From positions 1-63,599 of the IMG/VR virus record IMGVR_UViG_3300045988_069679: DNA of 63,599 nt; one strand, given 5' to 3'. Below, one piece after another: positions 1 to 63,599 of the stretch. The notes beneath the pieces are model-generated. The model saw nothing but the letters and a program-made list of their open reading frames with translations. It did not search any database and had not been told where the DNA came from. Source of the DNA: a virus. The position numbers and the translations under genes are program-made. The first letter of the stretch is position 1. Each line of letters begins with the position of its first letter.

Positions 1-55
1 CATAGCACCTTGTTCTTGGAAATAATACCACTTTCCTCCAACATTTTTCCAGCCA
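1..55. repeat. Terminal overlap, copy 1 (identical to 63545..63599); indicates a circular or circularly permuted assembly
   Basis: Read directly: both ends read CATAGCACCTTGTTCTTGGAAATAATACCACTTTCCTCCAACATTTTTCCAGCCA. Confidence 0.9.
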
Positions 56-774
56 GTAGCCATTTGACCTGAATTATCAAACCAGTACCAATAGCCGTCA
101 CTATGTTTCTTCCATTTGTTAGATAACATATAACCACTATTATCAAAGTAGTACCAAACTTCTTTAATCTTCTTAAACTGTTCTTTAGGATAAGTTCCAT
201 CAGCGTATTCATACCAATAACCGTTGGTGTTCTTCTTCCAACCCTCAGTACCTCCAATACCATTCTCAATATCTTTCTTGAATTGGGCTTTTGAAATTCC
301 CCAACTTTCTAGATAAGGATATGGGTCAACGTGGTCTGAGTGGTTATCAGGCTGATTATAAGTACAGTAGTAATGAGTCTTAATACCAGCTAAATCATCA
401 GTATCTAATGTTACTGGGATTCCACCTTCTACTGCAAGTTCACGGAGGAGCTGTACATAGAGTCTATAATCAGTATCAAATTCTTCTTGTGTTTTATGAC
501 TTTCAATCAATTCCACAGAAGCATAAGACTCAGCGTTCCAACCTCCTCCAACGTCATACGAGCCACGATTGGTTTGGGCTGTTTGTAGCACTCTTCCATT
601 CCCTACAACGTGTGTAAAGAATCCTGAATCAATAGGTCTTCTTAGATGGTAATCAGCTTCATTATCCACAGTGGAGTTCTTATTCCCTGTAGAGTGTGCA
701 TGAACTTGTCTATATGGAGCATACCCTACTTGTGGAGTATCCCATCTAAGTTTATGCTTTTCTATTTTTAGCAC
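1..774 (-). CDS. Endolysin, 5' part: LytA-like N-acetylmuramoyl-L-alanine amidase (Amidase_2) plus first choline-binding repeats. The gene wraps the window junction and continues at 63544..63350 (322 aa in total).
   Basis: Manual minus-strand translation gives [31 protein letters not shown]...[46 protein letters not shown]...[23 protein letters not shown], collinear with pneumococcal LytA as I remember it. GTG start at 774-772 sits 6 nt after AAGGAGA. It is absent from the ORF track because it runs off the window. Confidence 0.9.
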
Positions 775-49213: not shown

Positions 49214-49503
49214 CAGTTATGACTAGACAAAGAGCTTTAACTGTGCTGACTGATGACTTATTTATTGGAGAATTTGTCCATTTTAAGTCACCATGCTTTA
49301 GAGCCTTAAATATTAGAGATGGAGTGAAGGGTTATGCTAGAAAGTTACACCCAAAAGGCTACCTATTCATAGCTGATGAGAGACAAAAGAAACAAATGTA
49401 TGGCTATGGTTTTATACTTGAAAGGAGTGAACTATTAGCTAGACGTTGTTTATTATTAGAAGATGGAGCTGTTAGAATCATAGAGAAAGGACTATGGATA
49501 TGA
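49210..49503 (+). CDS. Array-2 paralogue c (97 aa; YLFIAD; ends KGLWI)
   Basis: ORF track; ATGA coupling. Confidence 0.7.
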   Translation: MTVMTRQRALTVLTDDLFIGEFVHFKSPCFRALNIRDGVKGYARKLHPKGYLFIADERQKKQMYGYGFILERSELLARRCLLLEDGAVRIIEKGLWI

Positions 49504-49805
49504 CAAATGTAGAAAGAGTAGTAAAAGCTATTGAAAATAGAGGGTTTACCATTACTCATTACCCTTGTAGGGCATCTATAGAGATATATGAAGCTGATTT
49601 TAAACGTTTTGAAGGTAATGTGGTAGAACTTGAAAATGCTACGTCTAGAACTTCACTTAAATATACTCTATTTATATCTGATGAGGAAGACCATGTCCAA
49701 TTCCACAATGGGTTCTCCTTGATTAGTGACGATAGTATGCCAGACGTATTATGGTTTAAAGAAACTGCTGATAAAATTACTAGACTTGAAGGATTTTATA
49801 TTTAA
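49500..49805 (+). CDS. Array-2 paralogue d (101 aa; TLFISD...FHNG; ends EGFYI)
   Basis: ORF track 49494..49805. The second ATG (ATGA overlap, better SD spacing) is preferred. Confidence 0.65.
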   Translation: MTNVERVVKAIENRGFTITHYPCRASIEIYEADFKRFEGNVVELENATSRTSLKYTLFISDEEDHVQFHNGFSLISDDSMPDVLWFKETADKITRLEGFYI

Positions 49806-49815
49806 GGAGATAGGT

Positions 49816-50109
49816 ATGGAAAAACACCAAGAGGAGTATATAAAATTGCTAGATGATAAGTTTAATATAGCTGGTGAACCTAGAATAGCTACATATAATA
49901 GACACAGACATACTATTGAGAGTGGTATTGCAGTAGAGATAAAAAACTTTGGTGATGGTGTAGTAGTATTCATAGCAGACAATCCAAAAGGATACTTACA
50001 TAAGTTCGCAACAGAGTTGGATAGTGAGCATTTACCTCCTTGTGTATGGCTTACTAGATGGTCTGACAAAGATTTAGAGTTACACCTAGACAAAGGATTC
50101 TTCATATAA
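49816..50109 (+). CDS. Array-2 paralogue e (97 aa; VVFIAD; ends KGFFI)
   Basis: AAGGAG RBS 6 nt before the ATG at 49816. The ORF-track start at 49726 overlaps the previous gene. Confidence 0.7.
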   Translation: MEKHQEEYIKLLDDKFNIAGEPRIATYNRHRHTIESGIAVEIKNFGDGVVVFIADNPKGYLHKFATELDSEHLPPCVWLTRWSDKDLELHLDKGFFI

Positions 50110-50112
50110 AAC

Positions 50113-50140
50113 AAAAAGAGCCAATTAAGGCTCTCTTTTT
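50113..50140. terminator. Bidirectional intrinsic terminator between the convergent early and late blocks
   Basis: AAAAAGAGCC-aattaa-GGCTCTCTTTTT. Confidence 0.8.
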
Positions 50141-50996
50141 ATTTATTCTTTTTATCATCACAGTTACAGTCATCTTTAGGAATCTCTGTGAACTTCAAGC
50201 AGTCAGGTAGGTCTTTACCTTCAATGATAGGAACATACTCAACCTTGAATTGGTGAAGTCTGAACACACCGCTAGCTTGGTTATCAGGTACAACTCTTAC
50301 CTTAATGTATTGACCAGCAGGTACAATGATTGTATCAGACATTTCCATAGCACCATCAGAGATACCAGTCATTTGCCAATGCACAGAGCGCTGTTTAACC
50401 ATATCTGTGGTATAGCTTTCTCCACTGTGGTAGACTACAATCTGAATAGTGTTATCCTCTTGTGGATTCAATGTAGTACCATCAGCACACCAACGTAGGA
50501 ACACACGGTACTGTCTATCTGTGAGCTGTCTACGCTTATCATCATTCTCAAAGTCCACACCAGTAGTAGAATCCATGTAGAGGTCAATGTCATACTCTTT
50601 AGTAATAGGAGCATAGAATGTAGCAGAAGATACAGCAGAGTTACGAGAGTAGTTCGTGTGTACCTTACCCATATCTCCAATAGATGCTACATACTCACCC
50701 ATACACTGTACCATATCCCACAAAGCACAGATATTCTCAATGTAGTGGTTAAGCTGACAAGCTAGTTTCTTAATGAATGATGAGAAGAACTTAGGGTTAT
50801 AGCACTTCTGTGATTCTGCCATACAAGCAAAACGTCCTACACCCTTGTTGTTTTCCTCCACAAGCCTATCACAGTCAGCAATAGGAATGTCTTCACAGTC
50901 ACAGTTATCATACCAGCATCTATCTTTAGGATTCTCATTGTAACTCTTGAAAGATGCTTCATTAAGTCTTGTGTTTTTATTATCTTCGTAAGCCAT
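50139..50996 (-). CDS. Cys-rich adaptor-domain protein (285 aa) with a beta-rich C-terminal domain; last gene of the late block
   Basis: N-terminus DRCWYDNCDCED..CDRL...ACMAESQKC...LACQL..ICALWDMVQC. C-terminus PDCLKF...DDCNCDD. Confidence 0.7.
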   Translation of the reverse strand: MAYEDNKNTRLNEASFKSYNENPKDRCWYDNCDCEDIPIADCDRLVEENNKGVGRFACMAESQKCYNPKFFSSFIKKLACQLNHYIENICALWDMVQCMGEYVASIGDMGKVHTNYSRNSAVSSATFYAPITKEYDIDLYMDSTTGVDFENDDKRRQLTDRQYRVFLRWCADGTTLNPQEDNTIQIVVYHSGESYTTDMVKQRSVHWQMTGISDGAMEMSDTIIVPAGQYIKVRVVPDNQASGVFRLHQFKVEYVPIIEGKDLPDCLKFTEIPKDDCNCDDKKNK

Positions 50997-52372
50997 TAGC
51001 TACCTATCTTTCCTTGTCTCTTCCAATTACCATCTTTACGGATATAGTTACCTCTAACTACTCCAGAGTCAGCAGGTTCTACATACCCAAACCTAGGGTC
51101 TCTAGGAATAACTTGTCCTACTTGCTCCTCATTTATTTCAGTAGAAGCTCTCTCCCAAAGGCTTTTGTGACGTTTAGACATGTGGATATTCTTAGTTACA
51201 AAAGATTTCCATGAGCCACTATTTCTAATAGCCCAAGGTCTAATCTTAGCTACCCTATCATAGAGGATTGTAATGTCTCTAGTCTCAGTAGGCTCTTTTG
51301 GTTTTATAGGGTCTGCATAAGAGAACACCTCACCACGAGAAGCATTACCAAAGAATCCTAACTCAAAGGAATCTCCTACTTTCTCTTTACCTGGGTTATA
51401 GATGATTCTGTTTCCAGGTCTATTACCCAAGGCATTGAAGTTGATTGTACTACCAATACCAGCAAGCATGAATGAACCTCTTGGAATATCAGAAGTACCT
51501 TCATAGTGAGCACCATTAGTATCACCAATACGACCAGAACCCATAAAGGTAAGTCCTGAACCTGGAGGTCTTAATAGCACAGAGTTGCTATCACCAAAAC
51601 CTGCTCTTACACTTTGGTTAAAGTCAATATCGGCTACTGCTGTAGAAGCTAGAATCTTTACTGGTCTATTGGTGTATTTCTCCACAAAAGAGAATGAGAA
51701 GTCTACTGAGTAAACATCATAGAACCATAGACCAATACCAGTACCATCATAAGGAGCTATCCACACACCTGGAGTTGCTCCAGCAAAGCTTACCACCTCA
51801 TAATCATTGATTCTAATAACCAAGTTTAAGGTCTTACCACTTAGTGTATAAGATACCTCAGTAAGCTCGAAGGTCATACCTGGATACATTCTACCAGAAG
51901 AACCTTCTTTACCTGAGTAGTTATACTCTCTGTTACCATGATAGGTAATAGGTCTTGCTAGAAGTTCTGCTTCTTGGTCATTTGTGAAAATCTTTACTGG
52001 GTTAAAGTAGTTATATCCAGAAGAATAAGTGCTATACTCTTCCACACCAGAGATAGAGCCATACTCAAAGTAGTTAGGGTTTCTTCTTAAGCTATCTACC
52101 CTCTCAGCATTTCTCTGTGCTACAGCTAAGCCATTATAGTATTTTCTAAGTAAGTAGTTATAAGATTGTACATCTTGTCTACTATTATAGTCACTCTCAG
52201 AAGGTGTTCTCTTTTGAGTCTCATACAACTCCCTAGCAGTATAGCCTTGGAAGGTCTTCTGTGTCTCAGTAATTGCTGTACTAAACTCATCATAACCAAC
52301 AGTCACAGGAGAAGCTAAGTCTTGTCCTGTTTGGGCATCTTTATAATAGATATTATAATTAAACTTAGCCAT
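50996..52372 (-). CDS. Adhesin/lectin-like receptor-binding candidate (458 aa); paralogue of the C-terminal domain of 55534..56829
   Basis: N-terminus NYNIYYKDAQTGQDLASPVTVGY is MucBP-like. Shared motifs ADIDFNQS, PRGSFMLAGIGSTINF, FFGNASRGEV. Confidence 0.6.
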   Translation of the reverse strand: MAKFNYNIYYKDAQTGQDLASPVTVGYDEFSTAITETQKTFQGYTARELYETQKRTPSESDYNSRQDVQSYNYLLRKYYNGLAVAQRNAERVDSLRRNPNYFEYGSISGVEEYSTYSSGYNYFNPVKIFTNDQEAELLARPITYHGNREYNYSGKEGSSGRMYPGMTFELTEVSYTLSGKTLNLVIRINDYEVVSFAGATPGVWIAPYDGTGIGLWFYDVYSVDFSFSFVEKYTNRPVKILASTAVADIDFNQSVRAGFGDSNSVLLRPPGSGLTFMGSGRIGDTNGAHYEGTSDIPRGSFMLAGIGSTINFNALGNRPGNRIIYNPGKEKVGDSFELGFFGNASRGEVFSYADPIKPKEPTETRDITILYDRVAKIRPWAIRNSGSWKSFVTKNIHMSKRHKSLWERASTEINEEQVGQVIPRDPRFGYVEPADSGVVRGNYIRKDGNWKRQGKIGS

Positions 52373-53331
52373 TAGCTGATTCCTCCTGCAAGGTCATTCT
52401 CTGTGCTACCATTGTTTGTTCTAATGAAGGCATCACCATCAGGAGTACCACCAAAGAGGTTGATATTACCTGTAGCAAGGTGTCTATTAGGTTTAAGATT
52501 ACCTTTGAAGATAGTATCTCCAGTTTGTTCCCAAGCTCCAGAGCCTTTAAGGTCTTCAAGTAGCTTAGTAAAAGCATCTTTAAGCTCATTGTACTGATTC
52601 ACAGTGACATAGTTATTAAGGTCAGGCTGAGGAATATCCACAGAGTTTCCATTAGAAATGGTTAGCCTATTGTTACTGATAGAGAGAGTCTGATTATCAT
52701 TATCCCTCTTAGCTTCAAGCACACCAAGTCTACGCTTAATATCTGCATCATTGTATGGTGTAGCTGTAGGAATATCTACCTCTCCACCTCCATTAGATAA
52801 TACAATCTTGTTACCACTCTTACTGATAGTTTGCTTATCATTAGGGAGAGTAACATTATTACCTCCATCAATGGATAGCACACGAGTGTTAGAGTTAAAG
52901 TTAAGGTTCTTACGAAGGATAGTATCATAGTTACCAATACCTTGTACTTTAACATTATCTCCACTAACCTCTATGATTTTCCAGATACCTCTATTGATAA
53001 CTGTTTGGTCAGCCCAATGGTCTTCTGCTGTGTCACCTACTTTAACTCCATCAGGGTTTCTAAAGTTGTTTTTCTTAACAGTGACTATAGTGTTTGATTC
53101 AGCTCTTCCTGGAATATCTCCATTGTAGAATCTGTGTGTAGAGCCACTAGGTAAGGCTACTGTGTTACCTCCACTAATTGTAAGGTTATTGCCATTCACA
53201 GACAATGATTGGTTATCCCTATCTTGCTTACTTTCTAAAGCAGTTAGTCTAGCCTTTAGTTGAGTATCATCATAGGCTGTCACAGTAGGTGTAGCTTGTT
53301 GTTCATTCTTGATATATGTAGTCTTTGACAT
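52372..53331 (-). CDS. Fibre protein (319 aa) with LTISNGN-type repeats and a conserved C-terminal NINLFGGTPDG...NDLAGGIS module
   Basis: ORF track; repeats NNLTISGGNTVALPSG, VLSIDGGNNVTLPNDKQT, RLTISNGNSVDIPQP. Confidence 0.7.
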   Translation of the reverse strand: MSKTTYIKNEQQATPTVTAYDDTQLKARLTALESKQDRDNQSLSVNGNNLTISGGNTVALPSGSTHRFYNGDIPGRAESNTIVTVKKNNFRNPDGVKVGDTAEDHWADQTVINRGIWKIIEVSGDNVKVQGIGNYDTILRKNLNFNSNTRVLSIDGGNNVTLPNDKQTISKSGNKIVLSNGGGEVDIPTATPYNDADIKRRLGVLEAKRDNDNQTLSISNNRLTISNGNSVDIPQPDLNNYVTVNQYNELKDAFTKLLEDLKGSGAWEQTGDTIFKGNLKPNRHLATGNINLFGGTPDGDAFIRTNNGSTENDLAGGIS

Positions 53332-54968
53332 TAGTTCAACCTCTGAATCTTCTCATATCTGTTATTGGTAGGGTTTTTAAGGTAAATACGGTTTTCTGAC
53401 GTTTGCATATAGAAACTTAAACCTGAAAGAGTTAGTGTGAGTTTACCAATAAGGGTTTCACCTTTTTTAACTTCAACCACAATAGGCTCTCCTGAGTCAA
53501 TCTCCTCTTTAGTTAGGAAGTGTGTATAATACTCTGTATGTGAGCTTAATTGTACACCCCAAACTAGTTTTGGTCTTATATTAATAACAACTTTATTATT
53601 AGAATCTTTCCAGATTGCAGTTATAATACTCTCAATTTTAATGTCCTTACTTAGCATTGCAAAGTTATTAGCAACTACAGTAGAAGCATCTGTTGAAGTA
53701 CCTGATATTCTAAAGTTATTCCCTGAAAAATCAGCGTTTGGTAAACCATCATACGTGTAGTTACCTGTGTAATTAAATACTATTCCAGCTTCTAAGAATG
53801 ACCCTGTTTGGGGAGTACCATCATTATCTACTGCATAGGCAATTCCATCTTTAAGACCAGAGTTATATCTTTTGTCAGGTGTAGCAGGTAATGCTCCATT
53901 ATTACCATTAGTACGGTAAGGACGTGAGACAATGGTATTAGTAGCCATATCAATACTAAAGTTATTATCACTATCAAGTAGTAGTCCATTACCTTTAGCT
54001 TTGTACTTGGTATCCTTATCCTCTTTTGCTTCTAGTGCATTAAGTCTATTGACCACAGAGGAATCATCATAAGGCTGTGTACTATTAGGTTGTGGTAGCT
54101 CTACCTCACCTCCGCCATTAGAGAGAATTAGTTTATTCCCTTCTTTTCTAATAGTCTGTTTGTCATTAGGTAGAGTTACATTATTACCATTAGAGATAGT
54201 TAACACACGAGAGTTATTGTCTAGTGTTAGATTCTGATTATCTCTATCTTGTTTGGCTTCTAAGGCATCAATTCTATCATATAGGGTCTTACCAGGGTAA
54301 GGTCTAGCTTCTAGGTCATCTAGCCTTCTCTTAACATCTCTATCATCATAAAGGGTATCCTTATCAGGTTTATCCTCTAAGGCTTTAACTCTAGCTTTTA
54401 AGGCTGTATCATCATAGGCTAAACTAATTGTGTCCTTATCCTCAAATTCAACCTCTTTAGGAGCACCATTCACAAAGGTATAGGTAAGCTTAACCTTATT
54501 CCCTTCCCTAGATACTGTCACACCACTCACAAAGTTATCAGCCTTATCTTCCACAGCTTGAATACGTCTACGGAGTTCAGCATCATTATACACAGTGTCT
54601 CTATCTTCTGGTAGGTTGATTGCATTACCATTGCTGATAGTGATTGTTCTACCATTGATTGAGAGGTTCTGTGTATCATTAGGAAGGGTTACTGTATTCC
54701 CTCTTGTAATTGTAAGCTCTCTTGTGTCATTATTTAATTCAAGATTCTGTGGCTTCTGTACCGTACCTCCAGCACCTCCCATAAGAATCCAATGAGTTCT
54801 ATCAGGAGATAAGGCATACATGTTTCCATCAGGAGTTCTGAATAAGTGGTCAAAGTCACCCATGAAAGGGTCAGGAAGACTATCCACAGGAGCAATCCAA
54901 GTGTCTTTAGGGTAAGTGCAATCTCTACAAAATGTATTGGGATTTCCTCCACAAGAATAACAACCCAT
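53331..54968 (-). CDS. Fibre / receptor-binding protein (545 aa); N-terminal GCYSCGG..FCRDC cluster, shared fibre modules, unique C-terminal domain
   Basis: The module NFVSGVTVSREGNKVKLTYTFVNGAPKEVEFEDKDTISLAYDD also occurs three times in the 1171-aa protein. Confidence 0.7.
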   Translation of the reverse strand: MGCYSCGGNPNTFCRDCTYPKDTWIAPVDSLPDPFMGDFDHLFRTPDGNMYALSPDRTHWILMGGAGGTVQKPQNLELNNDTRELTITRGNTVTLPNDTQNLSINGRTITISNGNAINLPEDRDTVYNDAELRRRIQAVEDKADNFVSGVTVSREGNKVKLTYTFVNGAPKEVEFEDKDTISLAYDDTALKARVKALEDKPDKDTLYDDRDVKRRLDDLEARPYPGKTLYDRIDALEAKQDRDNQNLTLDNNSRVLTISNGNNVTLPNDKQTIRKEGNKLILSNGGGEVELPQPNSTQPYDDSSVVNRLNALEAKEDKDTKYKAKGNGLLLDSDNNFSIDMATNTIVSRPYRTNGNNGALPATPDKRYNSGLKDGIAYAVDNDGTPQTGSFLEAGIVFNYTGNYTYDGLPNADFSGNNFRISGTSTDASTVVANNFAMLSKDIKIESIITAIWKDSNNKVVINIRPKLVWGVQLSSHTEYYTHFLTKEEIDSGEPIVVEVKKGETLIGKLTLTLSGLSFYMQTSENRIYLKNPTNNRYEKIQRLN

Positions 54969-55534
54969 TAGTTAATACCTCCTGCCAAGTCATTTTCAGT
55001 GCTTCCATTATTAGTACGGATAAAGTATTGTCCATCTGGTGTTCCACCGAACAAGTTAATGTTACCTGTGGCAATGTTACGATTAGGAACAAAGTCACCA
55101 TCTAGTCCACCTTGCCAAGCTCCACTAGCTTGTAAGTTATTTATAATCTTATTTAAAGCTCTCTTAAGCTTCTCATTCTCTGCTCTCAAATCAGCATCAT
55201 TGTAGGGTTGTGAAGGACTTGGAATATTCCCTGTAAAGCTAATAGTACCATCTTTAGAGATACTAATTAAGTTACCTGCTTTATAAGTAGGAGCAGTAGA
55301 ACCTCCACCTCCAGCATTATTAGCTAACCAACATAGCTGATTAGATACATTCTTATTGAAACACCACTGTGAGTAGGCAAACTTAGCTGTCTGGTCTACA
55401 ATCTCACACATTTGGCTATCCCTAAGAACTAGAGCGTGCATTTTAATTTTATCATCATTCTGTGCTAAGAGTGATTGGCAAGCTGTCTTACCAACTACTA
55501 TATCTTCACACTGACAGTTTACACAATCTGACAT
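54968..55534 (-). CDS. Cys-rich adaptor-domain protein (188 aa) ending in the NINLFGGTPDG...NDLAGGIN module
   Basis: N-terminus SDCVNCQCED..ACQSL...MCEIV...QWCFNK..LCWL. Confidence 0.7.
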   Translation of the reverse strand: MSDCVNCQCEDIVVGKTACQSLLAQNDDKIKMHALVLRDSQMCEIVDQTAKFAYSQWCFNKNVSNQLCWLANNAGGGGSTAPTYKAGNLISISKDGTISFTGNIPSPSQPYNDADLRAENEKLKRALNKIINNLQASGAWQGGLDGDFVPNRNIATGNINLFGGTPDGQYFIRTNNGSTENDLAGGIN

Positions 55535-56829
55535 TAGTTATCTCCTAAACAATCAAAATCACATGACATTAAGTCACATTCTTCTATAGGGGGTATAGGT
55601 TTTGGAGGTTCATGAAGGTCTACAGTTTCCCCTCTAAAGTTATTACCAAAGAAGTCCATTACCCAGTTACTTGGCTCTTCTGCATCACCATTCTGTTCTG
55701 TGGCATCAGGAGCACCACCTATAATCTCAAAATCAATCTTGGTAGCCACACCAGCCATAAGCATAGACCCTTTAGGTACAGATTCCTCATATTCATAGGC
55801 ATTATTGTAGGTACTCTTGAAATATGCTCCATCTTTTACAATATCAGCATCATTAGGAATACTATAGATAGTTTGGCTGTTATTAAAACTTGCTTTAAAA
55901 CTTTGCAACCAGTCAATATCACTGATAACCATTACATTCATAAGGTTAAGAGGTGCTCCACTATCATCAGTAAATTCAAAAGAACCTCTAACTTTATAAA
56001 TCTTATACATATCAAAAGATATACCACCAGAAGAGCTATAGATTTGTAAGTATCTATCACTAAGACCAGTCTTGTAGAAAGACTCTCCTCCAGCTTTAGA
56101 GAAGAACTCACTGACAGTTATTTTTACATGCACATTCTTACCAGAGGTAGTTCTAGCTACATTTCTTAGTGTGTAGGTTAAACCTGGAGCTAATTCACTT
56201 CCTAGGAATTTATGAGCTTTGTTATCTCTTCCAAAGCCTATACCTCCTACCACATAGTCCACACCCTCTTTAGAGGTTGCTAGTGAGAACTTAGAGTAGT
56301 AATCATAACTACCAGCTCTTGAAGGGTCAAAGTCACCAGAGATATAAATACCGTCTATCTCTTGCTTGTTAGGGTCATTCTTCATTTCCTCTAAGCGCTT
56401 CTTAGCTTTCTCTAATCGTTTGAGCTGTTCTTCATAGATGGCTTTAGCTTCGTTGTAGATACCTCTTTTATCATTAGGAGTATTAGGCTCTTTCTGCTTG
56501 TACTTCTTAATCATGTCCTTGTTACGCTTCACTGTGATTGAGTTAGCTTCAAGGATATTAGCTTTCATACAATGTAGGGTTACACACAGTGATTTAATCT
56601 TCTTCTGTAAACACACCATACGTTGCATTACATCACAGATAGTCTTGATAATCTTTCTTAATCTACACCAAAGCCTAAATACACCCTTCTGTGTATTAGG
56701 AACAATATCACACTGCTCAGAGTCTTTGATTATATCACCAGCACGCTTAATATCTTCTTGTGATTCATTTTTGTCACAGTATTTACCAGTGATTACTTTA
56801 TCATCACAACGACAATCACAAACGTCCAT
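55534..56829 (-). CDS. Cys-rich adaptor domain fused to a coiled coil and an adhesin/lectin-like domain (431 aa)
   Basis: ATG 56829 has AGGAGG 4 nt upstream. N-terminus VCDCRCDDK..YCDK...QCDIV...LWCRL..ICDVM..VCLQ..LCVTLHC. C-terminus ECDLMSCDFDC. Confidence 0.7.
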   Translation of the reverse strand: MDVCDCRCDDKVITGKYCDKNESQEDIKRAGDIIKDSEQCDIVPNTQKGVFRLWCRLRKIIKTICDVMQRMVCLQKKIKSLCVTLHCMKANILEANSITVKRNKDMIKKYKQKEPNTPNDKRGIYNEAKAIYEEQLKRLEKAKKRLEEMKNDPNKQEIDGIYISGDFDPSRAGSYDYYSKFSLATSKEGVDYVVGGIGFGRDNKAHKFLGSELAPGLTYTLRNVARTTSGKNVHVKITVSEFFSKAGGESFYKTGLSDRYLQIYSSSGGISFDMYKIYKVRGSFEFTDDSGAPLNLMNVMVISDIDWLQSFKASFNNSQTIYSIPNDADIVKDGAYFKSTYNNAYEYEESVPKGSMLMAGVATKIDFEIIGGAPDATEQNGDAEEPSNWVMDFFGNNFRGETVDLHEPPKPIPPIEECDLMSCDFDCLGDN

Positions 56830-56837
56830 AAGACCTC

Positions 56838-57200
56838 CTAGCACTTATCACAGCTAACCTCACAAGGAGTAACTGGTTGTTCTTTTAATACACTCAGAAC
56901 CTCTGCAATACTGTCATTCTGACATTTAACAGTACCACACAAGCTATCTACTTTCTTTTCTAAGCACTCTAGCTTTCTAATGATATAGCACAAGAAACCT
57001 ACAATGTTTTTGATTACACACCACACACCATAGAAGGCTTGTCTAATAGCTTCTTGAAGATTACACCACTCAGAGGTTGAGATTTTCCTCATTGCTGGTC
57101 TAATCTTTAGGTCATTTAGCTCTAGTAACTTAGCACAGTTCTCTGGTCTTGGCTCAACTTTCTCACACTCACAGTGCTTATTTAAACAGTTATCTGCCAT
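56838..57200 (-). CDS. Stand-alone Cys-rich adaptor-domain protein (120 aa, 13 Cys)
   Basis: ADNCLNKHCECEK..NCAKL...EWCNL...VWCVI..FLCYI..LECLE..LCGTVKC...PCEVSCDKC; Cys counted from the supplied translation. Confidence 0.7.
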   Translation of the reverse strand: MADNCLNKHCECEKVEPRPENCAKLLELNDLKIRPAMRKISTSEWCNLQEAIRQAFYGVWCVIKNIVGFLCYIIRKLECLEKKVDSLCGTVKCQNDSIAEVLSVLKEQPVTPCEVSCDKC

Positions 57201-57403
57201 TATTCATTCTCTTTCTTGTATGTGATATTAGACAGTCCTAAGACTGTTCCCAAGAATGTATTAAAGGCTGTGAGGACTACCACAGGGGTAGTCATCTCAT
57301 AACCTAATTGCACTCCTACCACACCAATAAAAGTAATGAAGGCAGGTAGCGCTGTAGTTGCTATAAATTTAGCAATATCATAATACTCATTACTTAATCT
57401 CAT
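57200..57403 (-). CDS. Small two-TM membrane protein, holin-like (possibly Dp-1-type holin family)
   Basis: 67 aa; TM1 FIATTALPAFITFIGVVGVQLG, TM2 VVVLTAFNTFLGTVLGL; charged C-terminus. Family assignment is from memory. Confidence 0.5.
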   Translation of the reverse strand: MRLSNEYYDIAKFIATTALPAFITFIGVVGVQLGYEMTTPVVVLTAFNTFLGTVLGLSNITYKKENE

Positions 57404-57418
57404 TTATATTCTCCTTGC

Positions 57419-57896
57419 TTAGTATGCTCTAGGAAATGTTACATTTGTAATTTCACTTGGATTTGTACTAGGACTTACTCTATGGTTTACATAACCTATA
57501 AAGCTAGAATTTTCCTCGTGTATAGTATTGACAAACTCATTACCTTTATGCTCAGTTCTAGTGTAAGCATAAACTAATACCCTAGTATCATTTACATCTT
57601 CATCATTATGTAAGTTTACTCTTATTTCTAACTTATCCTCTTCTGTAAGCACAGCCCTTATACTTAATAAATCAGTATTACATACATAAGGGATATTTTG
57701 GAAACCTATATAGGATTCATCAACAAAACATATAGGGTATAAAACTTTATTTTTGATTACCTCAAATTTTAATCTAAGGTAGTATCTATCCTCAATACTA
57801 TTTACAAATTTAAATAAGTTGTATTTGTATATTGGTATTAGTGTAAAAGAGTAAACTGTAAACTTTTCATGGGTTTTATATTTTTTTTTCAGACAT
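57419..57896 (-). pseudogene. Gene interrupted by an A9 tract. ATG 57896 reads 6 codons to a stop, and the +1 frame continues open into ORF 57419..57652. The restored product is 158 aa.
   Basis: Codon-by-codon translation of 57653-57898 shows no stop and no start codon. SD AGAGG lies 6 nt before the ATG at 57896. Span length 478 nt = 3n+1. Confidence 0.7.
57881..57889 (-). repeat. Homopolymer A9 (T9 on the plus strand) at codons 3-6 of the interrupted gene
   Basis: Read directly: ctgAAAAAAAAAtataaa on the minus strand. Confidence 0.95.
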
Positions 57897-57905
57897 ACTT
57901 AACCT

Positions 57906-58436
57906 CTAAGCATATAATCCAACAAAGTTGATAATGAATCTCTTACCAATCATAGCTTGTGTAAATCCTGTACTTCGTACCTTACCACCTCTATCCAACC
58001 AGAAAGAGATAGGTTCATTTCCAATGTACTGTTGAATCTCTAAGAACTCAATAGGAATAGGTGCTCCTGACGGTAATTCAGCAATCACAGCACTATGACC
58101 AATAGTACCTCTCACAAAACCGTCTACCTTAAAGATTCCAAAGGAGTTTACTGGGTTGTGAGATAGCACAGGAGGTCTATTATCATAGTTAAAAATATTA
58201 GGTACATTGAATCTACCACTATACTTTGTTAGTGTTTGTGCTTTCTTATTATTTTCAGCAATAGCCTTATCTACTTCACCCTTTGTGTAGTGCTTTTCAA
58301 AGGCTACATCAGCATTGATTGTGAATACCTCTTCCCCATTCTCTTGTGACTTAACCACAGTAAGTCCATCAGTAGTAGATTTTAGGTTGTAGAGTGTATC
58401 CTTATCTTCTAATTTATTGTAGTTCTTTGTTGTCAT
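57906..58436 (-). CDS. Receptor-binding knob candidate (176 aa), paralogue of 59381..59776
   Basis: N-terminus MTTKNY. The C-terminus GKRFIINFVGLYA parallels NRRMIINIVGLWSYTE, a C1q/TNF-like terminal strand pattern. Confidence 0.6.
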   Translation of the reverse strand: MTTKNYNKLEDKDTLYNLKSTTDGLTVVKSQENGEEVFTINADVAFEKHYTKGEVDKAIAENNKKAQTLTKYSGRFNVPNIFNYDNRPPVLSHNPVNSFGIFKVDGFVRGTIGHSAVIAELPSGAPIPIEFLEIQQYIGNEPISFWLDRGGKVRSTGFTQAMIGKRFIINFVGLYA

Positions 58437-58690
58437 TAAAGTCCTACTTTCTCTTTGATTCTTTCAATTTCAGCATCTTGTGTTTCTAGGACTAATTTAA
58501 GTTGCTCTGTAATTTGTGAGTTATTCACAGAAGTACCATTCACTCTAGTCAAGGTAAAATACTTATCATCTATCTGTGTTTCTTCATATTGATTGAAGCA
58601 AGTTTGTACAGTAGTGTGTAGTTCATTTACCTTATCCCACAGAGGTTCAAGACCTGTCTTATCTATTACTTTAAACTCTTTACTTGCCAT
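58436..58690 (-). CDS. Small coiled-coil protein (84 aa)
   Basis: ORF track; one-base coupling to both neighbours. Confidence 0.6.
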   Translation of the reverse strand: MASKEFKVIDKTGLEPLWDKVNELHTTVQTCFNQYEETQIDDKYFTLTRVNGTSVNNSQITEQLKLVLETQDAEIERIKEKVGL

Positions 58691-58691
58691 A

Positions 58692-59384
58692 TTATACCTT
58701 ATCTAACTTACCAGTAGGGTATGGGTCATCAGTGAACCATGAAGCACTAGAGAAACGTACATCATTGAAGGGTTCAGTAGGAATTACCTCATCAAAAATC
58801 AGTCTCATAAAGTTGGAATCATCAGTTCCTCCAACATACCAACTACCATATACCTTTTGTTTAGTTTGGTCATCTTGGAAAATCATTCCTTGTTGAGAGT
58901 ATGTAGCTCTAAACCCTTGAATAATATCACCTGGAACAATAATTCTACAACCTCTATCAGCTTGGTGATTCTGAGGAACATATCCTGGCTTACCTCTACC
59001 AACAATACCTAATCTACCAAAAGAACCACCAACTACTTTAAAGGTTACAGTATCATTCACACGTCTCATAGCAATATACTGACCTTTAGGTACACTTACT
59101 GTCTTCATCTTAACCCAACCAGTGTCACCTCGTAAGATTTTCCAACCTGTATTACCACCTTCTGATGTCTTTATCCACTTCACAGCACCATTGGTTACAT
59201 CTAAGTCGATATATGTAGTACCTATATGTCCTGTAACTTTACCTTCTGGGAATCCATGACCACTAAGCTCAGTAGGTAGTTCCACAGTATTACCATTACT
59301 AATAGAAAGGTTCTGACCATCTAAGGAAAGTGTTTGATACTCTTTTGATGGCCCTTGAGCTATATTATAATTTTTACTTGTCAT
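58692..59384 (-). CDS. Fibre / receptor-binding protein (230 aa)
   Basis: Start MTSKNY chosen by analogy (ATGA overlap). NLSISNGNTVELP repeat; GHGFPEGKVTGHIGTTYIDL..GAVKWIKTSEGGNTGWKILRGDTGW is typical of Gram-positive phage fibre proteins. Confidence 0.65.
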   Translation of the reverse strand: MTSKNYNIAQGPSKEYQTLSLDGQNLSISNGNTVELPTELSGHGFPEGKVTGHIGTTYIDLDVTNGAVKWIKTSEGGNTGWKILRGDTGWVKMKTVSVPKGQYIAMRRVNDTVTFKVVGGSFGRLGIVGRGKPGYVPQNHQADRGCRIIVPGDIIQGFRATYSQQGMIFQDDQTKQKVYGSWYVGGTDDSNFMRLIFDEVIPTEPFNDVRFSSASWFTDDPYPTGKLDKV

Positions 59385-59776
59385 TCTGTATAACTCCATA
59401 ACCCTACAATGTTAATAATCATTCTTCTATTGAACACAGTAGATATATCACCTTTAATATGACTAATCTGAACTTCTCTTGAATTTTTCTCTATGTATAA
59501 GGCAAAAGATACTTCTCCAATATTGACAGATTCTTCTATTAGCTCTACAGGAGTAGGTGTGTTTCCTTCAATTACACCAAGTTTTTGTCCACTTTGGTAT
59601 GTCCTAGCAAGAGAAAAATCGCATTTAGCAATGCCAAACCCTGTGGCATCATTGTAGAATAATTTAGATTTTCCAGCACTTTGGCTGTTTTGAAGAGTAA
59701 GTTCTGTATCATAATATGTTATATCAAAAGTTTTTAGAGTAGGGTCTCCATATTTAATATAATTTTTAGTTGACAT
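59381..59776 (-). CDS. Receptor-binding knob candidate (131 aa)
   Basis: N-terminus MSTKNY. The start codon abuts the (TA)10 tract and has no SD. Confidence 0.6.
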   Translation of the reverse strand: MSTKNYIKYGDPTLKTFDITYYDTELTLQNSQSAGKSKLFYNDATGFGIAKCDFSLARTYQSGQKLGVIEGNTPTPVELIEESVNIGEVSFALYIEKNSREVQISHIKGDISTVFNRRMIINIVGLWSYTE

Positions 59777-59795
59777 ATATATATATATATATATA
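59775..59795. repeat. (TA)10 dinucleotide microsatellite running into the ATG of 59381..59776
   Basis: Read directly: 21 nt of alternating A/T. Confidence 0.95.
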
Positions 59796-59810
59796 CCTTG
59801 TTATAATAGT

Positions 59811-59833
59811 TTAAAGGGGGAATAAACCCCCAC
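59811..59833 (-). terminator. Hairpin GGGGG-tttatt-CCCCC followed by TTTAAA, after the 1171-aa gene
   Basis: Read on the minus strand, a few nt downstream of the stop codon at 59838-59840. Confidence 0.5.
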
Positions 59834-59837
59834 TAAA

Positions 59838-62800
59838 CTACCCTTTCTTCTGAACTTTGTAAGAGTTAATTGAAGCAGTCACACCAGTGAATGTAGCTTC
59901 TACATAACCTTGCTCAACTCCACCTTTAGAGATTGAGATTCTAGCTGGCTCTGTACCTTGCAACTCAGCTAGGCTAAGTGCTTTACGGTATTTAACCACT
60001 TCATTTTCATTCTCTGGTTCATATACAAGGAAGGCTTTCACAGTAGAACCTGTATAGAAGAACTCTACATACACAAACTCATTGATAGAATTTCTGTGTG
60101 AACCTTGAATTTCATCTCCAGTAGTACCAGAGTTGAATCCAACCTTACCTGCCACAGTAGTTTCTTCACCACCAAATGGTGATTTAACTTTAGCTGAGAC
60201 ATTACCAGTGAGGACTAACTCTTTAAGTGGGTCAGTAGTTGCTTCTGATGCTAGGTTGATTACACCCTCACCTTGACTTAATGTCACAGCTTTGGTAGTT
60301 TTAGCTAGTTCATATTCAACTTCTGGTTTATTTTCAAGAACTTCAACTCTACCTCTAAGAGCACTATCATCATAGGCTACTGATACAGTATCATTGTCTG
60401 TGAATGAGACTTCTTTGTTATCACCATTTACCATAGTGTAAGTCAACTTCACAGTGTTACCTTCTCTTGATACACCTACGTTAGAGACAAAGTTATCAGT
60501 CTTACCTTCAAGAGCAGTAATCTTGTCACGTAACTCTTTATCATTATAGACTGTATCTTTATCCTCTTTAGTCTCAAGGGCTGTCAATCTAGCAGTCACA
60601 GCAGAGTCATCATAGATTGTATCCTTGTCAGGTTTAGCTTTAAGAGCTTCAACGTCTTTAGTCAAGGTGTTAATCTTGTTCTCATGCTCATCTACCATAT
60701 TGTCAGTAGTAGCAATGCTATCCTTGTTAGCTTGGATAAGCTTCTTAACTTCTGTATCATCATACACTGTATCTTTATCAGGCTTAGTTTCCAAAGCTGA
60801 GATACGAGCATCTAGTGCTGTGTCTTTGTCAGTCAACTCAGATACTTTAGTTTTCAAAGCTGAATCATCATAGATAGTGTCTTTATCTTCTTTAGATTCA
60901 AGAGCACCAATACGGTTTTCCAACTCAGTATTCTTAGTATCTTGTGCTTGTTTATTGTTATCTGCTTTTGTATCTACAGCTTGAATCTGAGCTTTAACCT
61001 CAGCATCATTGTAGATTGTGTCTTTGTCTTCTTTAGCTTCTAAAGCAGTAAGACGTTCTTTCACAGCAGTGTCGTCATAAGCAAGAGTTACTGTATCAGA
61101 ATCTTCAAACTCAACCTCTTTGTTAGAACCATCAACATAACTATAAGTCAATTTGACTTTTTTACCTTCTTTGTTCACAGAGACACCAGATACAAAGTTA
61201 TCTGTTTTAGCTTTGAGTGTGTTGATTTCATTAGTCAACTCTTGGTCTTTGTTAGCCAATTCTGTGTCTTTAGCCTTAAGCTCTTCCACACTAGCTTTCA
61301 AAGCACTGTCATCATATTTAGGAAGGGTAACTGCATTACCTCCACTGATTGACAATGTATGGTCTTCAAGACTAAGAGTTTGATTATCATTATCAACCTT
61401 GTTTTCCAAGGCAGTAATCTTACCTTCAATCTCTTTGTCTTTAGCATCAAGCTCTGCATTTTTAGCATCTTGTGCTTCTTTGTTAGCAGGAACAGTAGTC
61501 TCAAGAGCAGTAACTCTACCAGCAAGAGCTGTATCATCATATACAGTATCTTTATCTGGTTTAACTTCTAAGGCTTGGATTCTATTTTCAAGCTCAGTGT
61601 TCTTACCATCTTGAGTAGTCTTGTTACCATCTACCTTGCTCTCTAAGGCTGTAATTTGCCCTCTGACAGCACTATCATCATAGATGGTATCTTTGTCTTC
61701 CTTGTTCTCTAAAGCTTCAAGACGAGCGTCTGTGTGCGTTCTAAGGGCAGTTAAGTCATTCTCAACTCCTTGGATTGCATTTTCATTAGCTTTGATACCT
61801 TGCTTAACTTCTGTGTCATTGTAGATAGTATCTTTATCTTCCTTGTCTTCCAAGGCTTTGATACGAGTCTTCAATGGTTCATCATCATAGGCAAGGGTAA
61901 CAGTATCACTATCCTCAAACTCTACTTCACTAGAAGAACCGTCCACACGAGAGTAAGTAAGTTTTACCTTACCATCAGCCTTAGACACAGCAACATTATT
62001 GATAAAGTTATCTGTTCTATTTTCAAGGGCTGTAATCTTCTCATCTTGTGCTGTATTCTTAGCTTCGATTTCAGTAAGTTTATTCTCAACTACTGGTTTA
62101 GCTTCTTCAAGAACATTCACACGAGTGGTAAGAGCATCATTCTTACCTTCTAAGAAGTTCTTCACAGACTCAGTATAGTCATTAGCTTGTTTAATACTCT
62201 CTTTCACAGAAGAGTCATCATATTGTGGTAGGTCAACTTCATTACCATTAGAGATAGAAAGTTTGTTACCAGCAATAGCCAATGTCTGTTTGTCTGAATC
62301 TTCCTTAGATTCCAAAGCCTTAACTCTTGTATCAAGTCCTTGTGCTTTGTGGTCAATCAAGTCAACTGTTTTACCAAGAGTTTCACCCAATGTTTCAAGA
62401 GCAGTTTCTACTTCTGCATCTTTCTTCTTAAGGGCTTCAATCTCAGTATCTTGTGAACCATCTTTCTCAGCTTGTGCTTTAGATTTACCCTCAGCATCTT
62501 TAGCCAATTTGTCAGTTCTATTCTCAAGCTCAGTCACAGCATTAGTAATGTCTTCTACCTCTGTGTGTACTGCTTTGACTTCTTCCTCAAGTCCACCATC
62601 TAGGAGTTTAAGTTGGTCATTAATTTCATTAATTGAGTTATCTAGCTCACTAGTCAACTCTTTCAAGCCTTGAGAATCTTTTTGTAAGTCTGCAATAGCC
62701 TTACCATGCTCTTCATCTAGGTGTTGCACAGACTCATTTAAGTCTTTAACAGACTCTCCTAAGTCATCAAGAGCACCATCTTGACGTTCATTCTCTTTCT

Positions 62801-63353
62801 TAAGCTCAAGAACTTTAGCATCAATAAGGTCTACTGTTTTCTCAACAGCCTTACCTACAGCTTCTAGAGCATCATCTACTTGGTCATCATGAGCTTTCAA
62901 AGCTTCTAACTTAGTGTCTTGCTCAGAGTCTTTAGCTTCAATAGCTGAAAGTTTAGCATCATGCACAGCATCTTTAGCTTCCAAAGCAGATACTTTAGTA
63001 TCCAACTCTTTGTCTTTAGCTGTCAATGAATCTAATACTGCTTGGAATGAAGGAGAAGTAGTCACAGTGAACGTTACATCACCATTCTCATTATGCACTT
63101 CTTTCTTCACAGTGATTAGACCTTCACCTACTACATCAATTACTTGTGGAGACAAGTCAATGGCATCATAGCCACTTCTGTCAGGACGTAGTACATAAGC
63201 ACGTTTGTCTTGACCTGCATTGTCTTTAGGCACAAGGTAGATATAGTTTAGTTCAGCTGTTTCTTTAGGAGGTAGCTCACCAACAATCTTAACGATTGGG
63301 TCTTTTTTAAGTAGCTCCATTAAGCAACCTAAACCAACTTTAACTTTTGTCAT
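59838..63353 (-). CDS. Long repetitive fibre protein (1171 aa)
   Basis: ATGA overlap with the lysin stop. Many ALE(A/N/T)K.DKDT(I/V)YDD heptad-like repeats, three copies of a 60-aa NF(I/V)(N/S)xVxVxxxGxxVKLTY...FED(S/N)DTV module, LSISGGNAVTLP repeats. Confidence 0.85.
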   Translation of the reverse strand: MTKVKVGLGCLMELLKKDPIVKIVGELPPKETAELNYIYLVPKDNAGQDKRAYVLRPDRSGYDAIDLSPQVIDVVGEGLITVKKEVHNENGDVTFTVTTSPSFQAVLDSLTAKDKELDTKVSALEAKDAVHDAKLSAIEAKDSEQDTKLEALKAHDDQVDDALEAVGKAVEKTVDLIDAKVLELKKENERQDGALDDLGESVKDLNESVQHLDEEHGKAIADLQKDSQGLKELTSELDNSINEINDQLKLLDGGLEEEVKAVHTEVEDITNAVTELENRTDKLAKDAEGKSKAQAEKDGSQDTEIEALKKKDAEVETALETLGETLGKTVDLIDHKAQGLDTRVKALESKEDSDKQTLAIAGNKLSISNGNEVDLPQYDDSSVKESIKQANDYTESVKNFLEGKNDALTTRVNVLEEAKPVVENKLTEIEAKNTAQDEKITALENRTDNFINNVAVSKADGKVKLTYSRVDGSSSEVEFEDSDTVTLAYDDEPLKTRIKALEDKEDKDTIYNDTEVKQGIKANENAIQGVENDLTALRTHTDARLEALENKEDKDTIYDDSAVRGQITALESKVDGNKTTQDGKNTELENRIQALEVKPDKDTVYDDTALAGRVTALETTVPANKEAQDAKNAELDAKDKEIEGKITALENKVDNDNQTLSLEDHTLSISGGNAVTLPKYDDSALKASVEELKAKDTELANKDQELTNEINTLKAKTDNFVSGVSVNKEGKKVKLTYSYVDGSNKEVEFEDSDTVTLAYDDTAVKERLTALEAKEDKDTIYNDAEVKAQIQAVDTKADNNKQAQDTKNTELENRIGALESKEDKDTIYDDSALKTKVSELTDKDTALDARISALETKPDKDTVYDDTEVKKLIQANKDSIATTDNMVDEHENKINTLTKDVEALKAKPDKDTIYDDSAVTARLTALETKEDKDTVYNDKELRDKITALEGKTDNFVSNVGVSREGNTVKLTYTMVNGDNKEVSFTDNDTVSVAYDDSALRGRVEVLENKPEVEYELAKTTKAVTLSQGEGVINLASEATTDPLKELVLTGNVSAKVKSPFGGEETTVAGKVGFNSGTTGDEIQGSHRNSINEFVYVEFFYTGSTVKAFLVYEPENENEVVKYRKALSLAELQGTEPARISISKGGVEQGYVEATFTGVTASINSYKVQKKG

Positions 63354-63599
63354 TTAGTTTCTCCTTTTTGGATTTTAATAATACCATCTTTGTCCGTTGT
63401 GAATGTTCCATTAGTGTTCATCACACCATCATTATCCACAAAATACCAACCATCTCTACCCTTCACAAAGGTGTTTGTTTGCATATCACCATTAGCTGGG
63501 TCTAGATAGTACCACTTCTCTTTGTCTTTTAACCAACCAGTCTTCATAGCACCTTGTTCTTGGAAATAATACCACTTTCCTCCAACATTTTTCCAGCCA
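63350..63599 (-). CDS. Endolysin, 3' part (choline-binding repeats); continuation of 774..1. Bases 63545-63599 duplicate 1-55.
   Basis: ORF track fragment MKTGWLKDKEKWYYLDPANGDMQTNTFVKGRDGWYFVDNDG shows GW..WYY choline-binding repeats, in frame with the 1..774 translation. Confidence 0.9.
   Translation of the reverse strand, partial: GWKNVGGKWYYFQEQGAMKTGWLKDKEKWYYLDPANGDMQTNTFVKGRDGWYFVDNDGVMNTNGTFTTDKDGIIKIQKGETK
63545..63599. repeat. Terminal overlap, copy 2 (identical to 1..55)
   Basis: Read directly. Confidence 0.9.

Follow-up and report, generated by a model that had tools for sequence, protein, structure and literature searches.

A late-operon gene block that probably encodes the peripheral adhesion apparatus of an uncultured streptococcal phage, with lysin and holin genes embedded

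In lambdoid siphophages of Gram-positive hosts, the adhesion genes lie between the tape-measure gene and the holin and lysin genes (PMC11741397). IMG/VR virus record IMGVR_UViG_3300045988_069679, which was analysed over its whole length of 63,599 nucleotides (nt; hereafter, the window), raises the question of what is encoded by a block of 14 tightly packed minus-strand open reading frames (ORFs), named here g1 to g14, that starts where the lysin gene ends and runs over ~13 kb from position 63353 down to 50139. A sequence-only reading had taken these ORFs for a cassette of 14 fibre genes placed downstream of holin and lysin. We conclude that the block is probably a late-operon extension that encodes the peripheral adhesion apparatus of an uncultured siphophage of mitis-group streptococci, with the lysin and holin genes embedded in it; the phage itself is probably of the siphovirus type. 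Every functional statement made below is based on homology, synteny, patterns of variation and one good structure model.

Gene order in the window and in its relatives

The first 55 nt of the window are identical to its last 55 (1-55 and 63545-63599), and we therefore treated it as a circular assembly with a true length of 63,544 bp, in which the lysin gene spans the window ends. Read across the junction, complement(join(63350..63544, 1..774)) gives a product of 322 amino acids (aa). Its N-terminal amidase part (1-774, minus strand) begins with a GTG at 774, six bases after an AAGGAGA ribosome-binding site, and its C-terminal choline-binding part (63350-63599, minus strand) continues at 1-774 across the circular junction. 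The product matches Amidase_2 (27.6 bits; cutoff 26), Choline_bind_1 (76 bits) and Choline_bind_3 (80 bits) and, with catalytic domain and choline-binding repeats both present, fits a LytA-like choline-binding amidase endolysin.

The lysin stop overlaps the start of g1, an ORF of 1171 codons (59838-63353, minus strand), as ATGA at 63353, just as the sequence-only reading had it. The 13 further minus-strand ORFs which that reading had counted were also recovered, down to a bidirectional intrinsic terminator at 50113-50138, a hairpin with T-runs on both strands that closes the late (minus-strand) and early (plus-strand) operons. An independent gene call on the source contig (human oral metagenome, ENA ERZ989824) returned the same 14 genes, and minus-strand terminator-like sites were not found inside the block. 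Genes g7 to g14 are joined through 1-nt start/stop overlaps; the start of g9 is uncertain, and a short gap may precede it. We infer that all genes of the block are co-transcribed late.

One of these genes, g7 (67 aa; 57200-57403, minus strand), is a predicted Dp-1-type holin. It matches PF16938 (Phage_holin_Dp1) over its full length at 53.4 bits (cutoff 25; E 3e-14) and phrog_881 ('holin') at E 7e-23, and it is 42% identical to the holins of Dp-1 and MS1; by inspection, it has hydrophobic segments at residues ~11-31 and 39-57 and a charged C-terminus (KKENE). Unlike its Dp-1 counterpart, g7 does not adjoin the endolysin: the lysin end (63350) lies ~6 kb upstream, and the next gene is the cysteine-rich g8. 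With a holin at this place, the block is neither a set of 14 fibre genes nor simply downstream of holin and lysin. About 10 of the 14 products are fibre- or head-like, and to that extent the earlier description stands; g7 falls outside it and g6 is a doubtful ORF. What is odd about the locus is the scattering of its lysis genes inside a fibre array; it is not a case of fibres placed behind a complete lysis cassette.

The block was compared with seven IMG/VR sequences, a ~60-kb sister lineage (L017), a 45-kb temperate relative (L015/L016; the query protein was named from S. hyointestinalis) and one contig from an NCBI saliva metagenome. The order from g5/holin through g14 to the terminator is kept in all seven IMG/VR relatives, and the lysin-g1 junction in both of those that reach upstream. 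L017 has the order Dit, Tal, lysozyme, CHAP, choline-binding lysin, fibre, Dp-1 holin, fibres, terminator, and in the saliva contig a choline-binding lysin likewise lies ahead of the fibres and holin, a Glyco_hydro_25 lysozyme replacing the amidase there. Synteny, which the sequence-only reading had proposed to compare, is kept in these relatives as lysin-fibre-holin-fibres as far as the contigs reach. The lysin slot itself holds the same choline-binding repeats with other catalytic parts in two relatives, namely Glyco_hydro_25 in L020 (4262-5017) and an N-terminal half without family match in L010 (~112-1107), which suggests that catalytic domains are swapped at a fixed lysin position.

Predicted fibres, heads and anchors

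The block products share modules far above chance. Sequence comparisons gave E 5e-50 for g11 versus g1, E 2e-28 for g11 versus g12, E 2e-27 for g10 versus the g12 C-terminus (51% identity), E 2e-26 for g9 versus g13, E 1e-9 to 1e-13 among the N-termini of g8, g9 and g10, and E 3e-7 for g2 versus g5. There are eight copies of the motif DKDTxYxD in g1 and four in g11, modules of the LTISNGN..V.LP type are present in g1, g3, g11 and g12, and an M[ST][ST]KNY N-terminus opens g2, g5 and g3 (the last from Met6, the start picked by the gene caller); these counts and E-values bear out the shared stalk modules and N-termini that had been seen by eye. The count of at least eight different C-terminal domains does not hold in the same way: g2 and g5, g9 and g13, and g10 and g12 form pairs, leaving about six head families (g1 tip, g11 tip, g2/g5 knob, g3 head, g9/g13 lectin-like head, g10/g12 C-terminal domain, g14 domain). 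Homology between the g1 and g11 tips was considered and is not convincing, being at most marginal (E 0.011).

In gene order, the tail lysins are followed by the LytA-like lysin, g1, a swap slot of g2 to g5, the holin g7, a second set of predicted fibres (g8 to g14) and the terminator, and two principles of construction can be seen in the head-bearing products. In the predicted linear fibres (g1, g2, g3, g5, g10, g11 and g12), an N-terminal anchor is followed by stalk repeats and a C-terminal head, the head being either fused to a long stalk or carried on a separate mini-fibre that keeps one stalk repeat. In the candidate fold-back proteins (g9, g13 and probably g14), both ends are conserved and a variable head sits in the middle, with g8 as the headless form; the conserved ends are cysteine-rich in g8, g9 and g14, and in g9 and g13 the head appears lectin-like, resembling the V-region of streptococcal AgI/II adhesins and flanked, as there, by a helix and a proline-rich strand.

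The first linear fibre, g1, is predicted to be long, an anchor domain at the N-terminus leading through a coiled coil and stalk modules to a beta-rich tip; its stalk holds, besides the eight DKDTxYxD motifs, three DNFVSxV modules and two copies of LSISNGN..LP. A tblastn search with g1 against the phage collection gave no match, probably owing to low-complexity filtering. Three predicted mini-fibres lie between it and the holin (all minus strand). The first, g2 (131 aa; 59381-59776), has an MSTKNY N-terminus and a knob homologous to that of g5, and is missing from all seven relatives compared. The second, g3 (230/235 aa; 58692-59399, with a probable start at 59384, MTSKNY), joins one LSISNGN..LP stalk module to a head of the EJ-1 ORF71 type; it matches phrog_21909 (E 2e-55) and shares ~44% identity with EJ-1 ORF71 and with proteins of Javan prophages, some of them annotated 'tail fiber protein'. 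In EJ-1 and Javan326, the holin and lysin genes come directly after the g3 homologue. The third, g5 (176 aa; 57906-58436), consists of a MTTKNYNKLEDKDTLY N-terminus with one stalk repeat, and a knob. The C1q/TNF-like fold that had been read into the g2 and g5 knobs found no Pfam match, and the family profile gave no PDB match. Between g3 and g5 lies g4 (84 aa; 58436-58690), which also stands beside g3 in relative L005 and is present in L006, where the locus begins at g4; a connector or chaperone would be our guess. The doubtful g6 (77 aa; 57419-57652) has a GTG start and no family match.

Beyond the holin, the linear type would be represented by three further minus-strand genes. The short fibre g10 (188 aa; 54968-55534) is built of a cysteine-rich helical-hairpin N-domain, a short stalk, a coiled coil and a conserved 55-aa C-terminal domain that matches phrog_17155 and phrog_7547; the family has more than 1100 proteins in a cluster-representative search. 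The 545-aa fibre g11 (53331-54968) has a CxxC N-terminus, a module like that of P087 gp81, stalk repeats shared with g1 and a tip of its own. The 319-aa fibre g12 (52372-53331) combines three LxISxGN..LP stalk modules with a Cp-1-type C-terminal domain: its last ~70 residues and the matching stretch of g10 show 61-64% identity with the C-terminal ends of Cp-1 orf15 and Cp-7 ORF16 ('Appendage'), g12 reaching 64% with the former and 61% with the latter. Small streptococcal podoviruses have 'tail fiber proteins' with similar C-terminal ends.

The remaining four genes, again on the minus strand, supply the candidate fold-back proteins. Of these, g8 (120 aa; 56838-57200) is headless and has 13 cysteines, arranged in N- and C-terminal motifs that match those flanking a BspA_v head in the sister lineage. 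In g9 (431/436 aa; 55534-56844), a cysteine-rich N-domain, a helix, a V-region-like lectin head, a proline-rich segment and a cysteine-rich C-terminus follow one another, and in g13 (458 aa; 50996-52372) conserved ends enclose a variable helix and V-region-like lectin head. In the product of the last gene, g14 (285 aa; 50139-50996), a beta-rich domain that contains invariant Asp, His and Arg residues lies between an N-domain of the cysteine-rich g10 type and a cysteine-rich C-terminus; it has no Pfam or PDB match, and its family is rare, with 19 representatives among 1.84 billion.

The fold of the lectin-like heads was addressed with an AlphaFold model of g13, computed from a 21-sequence alignment (mean predicted local distance difference test score, pLDDT, 81.6). 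The g13 family comprises 77 cluster representatives with 39-97% identity, and its long contigs come from oral metagenomes and measure ~50-70 kb, mostly 60-65 kb. Foldseek returned S. gordonii SspB, S. mutans AgI/II A3VP1 and the N-domain of the Sgo0707 adhesin as the top PDB matches of the model, with a probability of 1.0 and E-values of 8e-5 to 4e-3, but with template-modelling (TM) scores of 0.25-0.37, a high root-mean-square deviation and ~13% identity. Against the BFVD viral library, the best matches of the model were siphovirus proteins from metagenomes that bear the names 'MucBP domain-containing' and 'Glucan-binding protein C'. In an hhalign comparison, g9 aligned to the g13 family at E 6.5e-40 and shared its helix, head and proline-rich region; the head is flanked by a helix at 66-95 and by PIKPKEP / PPKPIPP segments in the two proteins. 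The same method found no relation between the g13 family and the BspA_v protein of L015. Column identity in the g13 family is 0.68-0.82 at the ends and 0.35-0.53 in the helix and head. The two lectin-like domains of the sequence-only reading are thereby placed in g9 and g13, through the AgI/II V-region-like fold of the g13 model and, for g9, through homology, and we regard 'lectin-like' as a reasonable term for these modelled heads at the level of the fold.

The anchors were approached through g10, whose AlphaFold model (pLDDT 68) shows the cysteine-rich N-domain as a helical hairpin (helices 18-39 and 45-73) followed by stalk and coiled coil. The conserved C-terminal 35 residues have a pLDDT below 50 in this model, and the C-terminal domain probably needs an oligomer (trimer) to fold. 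The N-domain of g14 aligned to the g10 family in hhalign (probability 77%, E 2e-5), so a single type of anchor is common to g8, g9, g10 and g14; all of these but g10 have cysteine motifs at the C-terminus as well.

Exchange of modules, genomic setting and rival explanations

Conservation is unevenly distributed along the block. Identity between the window and the IMG/VR relatives is 94-98.5% for g7, 98-100% for g8, 98-99.5% for g10 and 96-99% for g14, that is 94-100% over these four, whereas g9 (64-98%), g12 (60-82%) and g13 (47-90%) together span 47-98%; in g9 and g13 the variation lies within the heads, the g9 N-terminus being kept. The values for g1 (64-84%, with a varying number of repeats), g5 (67-72%) and g11 (75-92%) complete the comparison. 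Between g1 and the holin lies a swap slot, in which the relatives carry differing small M[TA][ST]K[NS]Y proteins whose heads are unrelated. The doubtful g6 sits here, in a ~500-bp insertion (57404-57905) between g5 and the holin that none of the seven relatives has; in them, the holin directly adjoins g5 or some other small gene. The insertion is AT-rich, with a run of nine A's and ORFs that are only short or GTG-initiated.

In the sister lineage L017, modules of the block recur in new combinations. A 583-aa fibre there consists of the g1 N-terminus and stalk fused to a knob of the g5/g2 type (E 7e-19), so that the knob forms the C-terminal tip of a g1-like fibre. A 290-aa protein is 82% identical to g8 over residues 1-107, then carries a BspA_v-like head (E 1e-4, below the Pfam cutoff) and ends in the same cysteine-rich C-terminus; a 114-aa protein consists of both ends of g9 without the head; a 610-aa protein joins the g11 N-terminus to g12; a 401-aa protein combines a MucBP domain (42 bits; cutoff 23) with a C-terminus like that of g13; and the last gene corresponds to g14 (81% identity). 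In L015, with 38% (Dit) and 33% (Tal) identity to the window, the stretch between the tail lysin and the Amidase_2 endolysin encodes proteins homologous to g10 and, at 56 aa, to the N-terminus of g11, another whose C-terminus resembles that of g13, and one of 284 aa that contains BspA_v (PF18220, E 2e-18). In L015, the g10-, g11- and g13-like modules are thus in the canonical location before the lysin. Conserved anchors with heads that can be exchanged, fused or deleted behave as receptor-binding modules do.

The surroundings of the block are those of a late operon on the minus strand that begins with genes for terminase, portal and head and leads to the tape measure (6634-11055). Directly after the tape-measure gene, as in the canonical siphophage adhesion module, come genes for a cysteine-rich Dit-like protein (5528-6634; phrog_16596; 20 cysteines, 5.4%) and a Tal-like protein (4254-5531; phrog_21524, 'tail protein with lysin activity'), which are 27-31% identical to the proteins of the lactococcal P087 group (Teubervirus) in the same positions and 33-38% identical to those of L015. 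This core (4254-6634) is presumed to be the docking platform for the fibres. A tail lysozyme (2992-4245; PF18013), two small ORFs and a CHAP-like protein of 355 aa (1427-2494; endolysin PHROGs, E ~5e-10) follow, all on the minus strand. Between Tal and the lysin, there is no gene that resembles one for a receptor-binding protein, just the tail lysozyme, the CHAP protein and small ORFs, and the receptor binders must therefore be encoded elsewhere in the phage. Together with the LytA-like lysin, the CHAP-like protein and the PF18013 lysozyme make three encoded wall hydrolases.

Two further minus-strand genes separate the CHAP-like protein from the lysin. The first encodes a 109-aa protein with five cysteines (1095-1424), whose counterpart in L017 (4623-5504) has 293 aa, shares only the first 38 residues and is extended by a long low-complexity linker rich in Pro, Glu and Thr and by an additional domain at the C-terminus. 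The second, directly 5' of the lysin, encodes a 119-aa protein with one N-terminal hydrophobic segment and no family match (752-1111); we considered it as a holin and find this doubtful, its L015 homologue (48% identity) being among fibre genes, away from the lysin. Cysteine-rich products of the late operon also occur outside the cassette: one of 261 aa in the head-gene region (14508-15293) has 19 cysteines (7.3%) and one of 166 aa (13701-14201) has seven. The cysteines of Dit lie in an insertion that is partly kept in L015 (17 cysteines) and less so in the P087 group (nine). Docking of like on like between Dit and the anchors finds no support, as the insertion is not homologous to the g10-type domain (hhalign). 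Directly upstream of the packaging genes are a tRNA-Arg(TCT) and a tRNA-Cys(GCA) (23928-24130, minus strand), the latter notable beside such unusually cysteine-rich virion proteins and also carried by P087-group phages. On the plus strand, six small genes (95-127 aa; 48321-50109) end the early operon; five of them finish in similar motifs (GFYV, EGFYI, GLWI, EGFYI, GFFI), the sole significant BLAST pair among them is 48908-49213 versus 49494-49805 (E 1e-6), and the run is possibly an array of diverged paralogues.

The lysin is 64-66% identical to the LytA-like enzymes of MM1, SpSL1 and MissE2, phages of pneumococcus and S. mitis, which points to a choline-containing mitis-group Streptococcus as the host. 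The large terminase is ~25% identical to that of the P087 group, and megablast of the cassette and the window's first 20 kb against 50,697 phage records gave no DNA match; the phage collection searched holds no cultured or annotated representative of the lineage. In human oral metagenomes, the lineage is common, judging by the 77 and more than 1100 cluster representatives of the g13 and g10 searches, many of them on contigs of 60-65 kb.

From this body of comparisons, we infer that the block products are virion components, which would be attached to the Dit/Tal baseplate or, in part, to the neck, and that the variable heads would bind cell-wall glycans and so set the host range. Several observations weigh against this. 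A Pfam scan of all 14 products had the holin g7 as its sole match, and PDB sequence searches with g13, g3, g12 and g11 and with family profiles for g5 and g14 gave nothing significant, so that most of the proteins are without a Pfam or PDB match. Pfam V-domain models (E <= 0.01) match neither g9 nor g13, and the TM scores to AgI/II are low (~0.3). The labels 'tail fiber' and 'Appendage' on homologues are database annotations and not experiments, the virion placement of the g1-g14 products is drawn entirely from comparison, the holin in mid-block means that not every gene is structural, and g14, near-invariant and with conserved Asp, His and Arg, would fit an enzyme or an assembly factor equally.

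Phage P087 raises the main alternative, namely that g1 and the mini-fibres g2-g5 form a neck-passage structure (collar, whiskers) or head fibres and that only g8-g14 are at the tail tip. In this phage, the endolysin is directly followed by a large gene, gp86 (941 aa), which bears the label 'structural protein; putative neck-passage structure protein', and the morphogenesis modules are distantly syntenic with those of the window; the g1 tip matches a head-decoration PHROG weakly (E 0.006), and the L015 tail module has homologues solely of g8-g14 members and none of g1-g5. We hold this to be doubtful all the same, given that g1 is without detectable similarity to gp86, that heads of the g3 type close the tail modules of EJ-1 and Javan prophages, that g1 has its stalk modules in common with g11 and g12, and that the variable slot between g1 and the holin acts like a host-range determinant.

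A different role for the adhesin-like heads would be to tether virions to salivary pellicle, mucin or plaque partners, with host recognition left to a few other domains (the Cp-1-type domain, the knobs). The nearest structural matches are tissue and saliva adhesins of oral streptococci, positional counterparts carry BspA_v and MucBP (the latter exceeding the Pfam cutoff, with 42 bits), and the habitat of the phage is saliva. The V-like heads are nevertheless the most variable parts among close relatives (47-98%), which an arms race with bacterial glycans fits better than binding to conserved human glycoproteins, and Gram-positive siphophages normally use lectin or carbohydrate-binding heads directed at polysaccharides of the cell wall (PMC7533335, PMC9437275); tethering as the role of the heads is therefore unlikely in our judgement. 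That much of the block acts outside the virion, as lysis accessories, assembly chaperones or cargo with fibre-like repeats, would account for a holin in mid-block whose stop overlaps the g8 start, for the small, headless g4, g6 and g8 and for the almost invariant g14. It is very improbable, as 10 of the 14 products have an anchor-stalk-head or fold-back-head build, with modules common to one another and to tail-module proteins of other phages, and g8 is the head-deleted form of a head-bearing protein of the sister lineage.

Comparison with known adhesion systems

Dp-1, EJ-1, Javan326 and L015 keep the rule that adhesion genes precede the lysis genes. In the window, the receptor-binding genes are not between Tal and the lysis genes, and the fibre genes come after the lysin. 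The placement that the sequence-only reading called atypical does break the siphophage rule, but it is lineage-wide in the relatives and has a precedent in P087 (GenBank FJ429185), where the endolysin gp85 is followed by gp86, gp87 and gp88 at the end of the late operon, all annotated structural (gp87 and gp88 as 'structural protein'). The large terminase (TerL), portal and Dit/Tal module of P087 are distantly homologous to those of the window and syntenic with them, and both phages have a tRNA-Cys. P087 differs in having three post-lysin genes instead of thirteen and a holin and lysin that are nearly adjacent and upstream. No similarity of gp86-gp88 to g1-g14 was found by tblastn or BLASTP; the exception in P087 is the gp81 region, which the g11 N-module matches.

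The pneumococcal phage Dp-1 (holin Gp58, Pal Gp59) has a holin of the same family and, like the window, a choline-binding amidase as lysin. Its genes run antireceptor, minor structural protein, two small genes, holin, lysin, terminator, whereas in the window the lysin lies ~6 kb upstream of the holin and fibre genes lie between and after them. Head domains common with g10/g12 (55-70 aa) and with g3 occur in Cp-1 orf15 and Cp-7 ORF16 and in EJ-1 ORF71 and Javan proteins, respectively; those proteins belong to other virion types (podovirus, myovirus and small temperate siphoviruses) and have other N-terminal parts.

Multivalent carbohydrate binding by baseplates and modular exchange of heads are documented for Gram-positive siphophages (PMC7533335, PMC9437275, PMC7291167), and multivalency in itself is thus unsurprising. 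A modular, multi-protein adhesion cassette, as the sequence-only reading had it, is the best reading of the block, but its multivalency is less unusual for a streptococcal siphovirus than was stated there (PMC7533335, PMC9437275). TP901-1 and Tuc2009 (BppU-BppA-BppL) and S. thermophilus phages with several carbohydrate-binding modules combine, as proposed here, a Dit-Tal core with several peripheral carbohydrate-binding proteins. The genes of these devices are placed between the tape-measure gene and holin/lysin (PMC11741397), and their anchors differ: Pfam scans of g1-g14 gave no BppU-type match. To our knowledge, neither the cysteine-rich anchor nor the AgI/II V-like fold-back head has been described for them. 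Neither turned up in the Pfam, PHROG and PDB comparisons that were run, and literature searches yielded no account of this lineage or of phage receptor-binding proteins resembling AgI/II.

The AgI/II adhesins (SspB, SpaP, BspA, GbpC) and Sgo0707 have a V-region fold with a long helix before it and a proline-rich segment after it, as the g13 model appears to have, and the conserved ends and central head of g13 echo the fold-back stalk of AgI/II. In contrast to these adhesins, g13 has no LPXTG anchor, is phage-encoded and has phage-specific ends. One may speculate, although we think it unlikely, that the window encodes a new class of fold-back adhesion proteins, in which the cysteine-rich helical-hairpin N-domain and cysteine-rich C-terminus would form a clamp on the side of the virion and an exchangeable head (AgI/II V-like, BspA_v or MucBP), derived from the surface adhesins of the hosts or convergent with them, would be borne at the tip of a stalk of helix and proline-rich strand, mimicking adhesins so as to target the plaque niche. 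If such mimicry is real, virions could bind the salivary-pellicle, mucin or co-aggregation glycans to which the adhesins of their hosts bind; if such a class exists, the tRNA-Cys and the cysteine-rich Dit would support a baseplate locked by disulfides or metal.

Annotation rules that seek receptor-binding proteins just between the tape-measure and lysis genes would miss these adhesion genes. The cassette would offer natural interchangeable heads on conserved anchors for mitis-group streptococci, including relatives of S. pneumoniae, and these would be useful for host-range prediction and engineering; two of its module types, the cysteine-rich anchor and the AgI/II-like fold-back head display, we found undescribed for phage adhesion devices.

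Among phages of Gram-negative hosts, the branched multi-tailspike systems of G7C, CBA120 and PhiK64-1 comprise many different receptor-binding proteins encoded by tandem genes with conserved N-terminal and exchangeable distal parts, to which the block can be likened, while the branched attachment through adaptors that the sequence-only reading proposed would be conjectural here; scans of the block against Pfam and PHROG found no enzymatic beta-helix tailspike and no gp10-like or other adaptor domain. What stands out beside all these systems is the presence of about ten separate head-bearing proteins, split lysis genes, cysteine-rich anchors and AgI/II-like heads, in a layout that is real and unusual but lineage-wide, and that is partly foreseen by the dairy phage P087.

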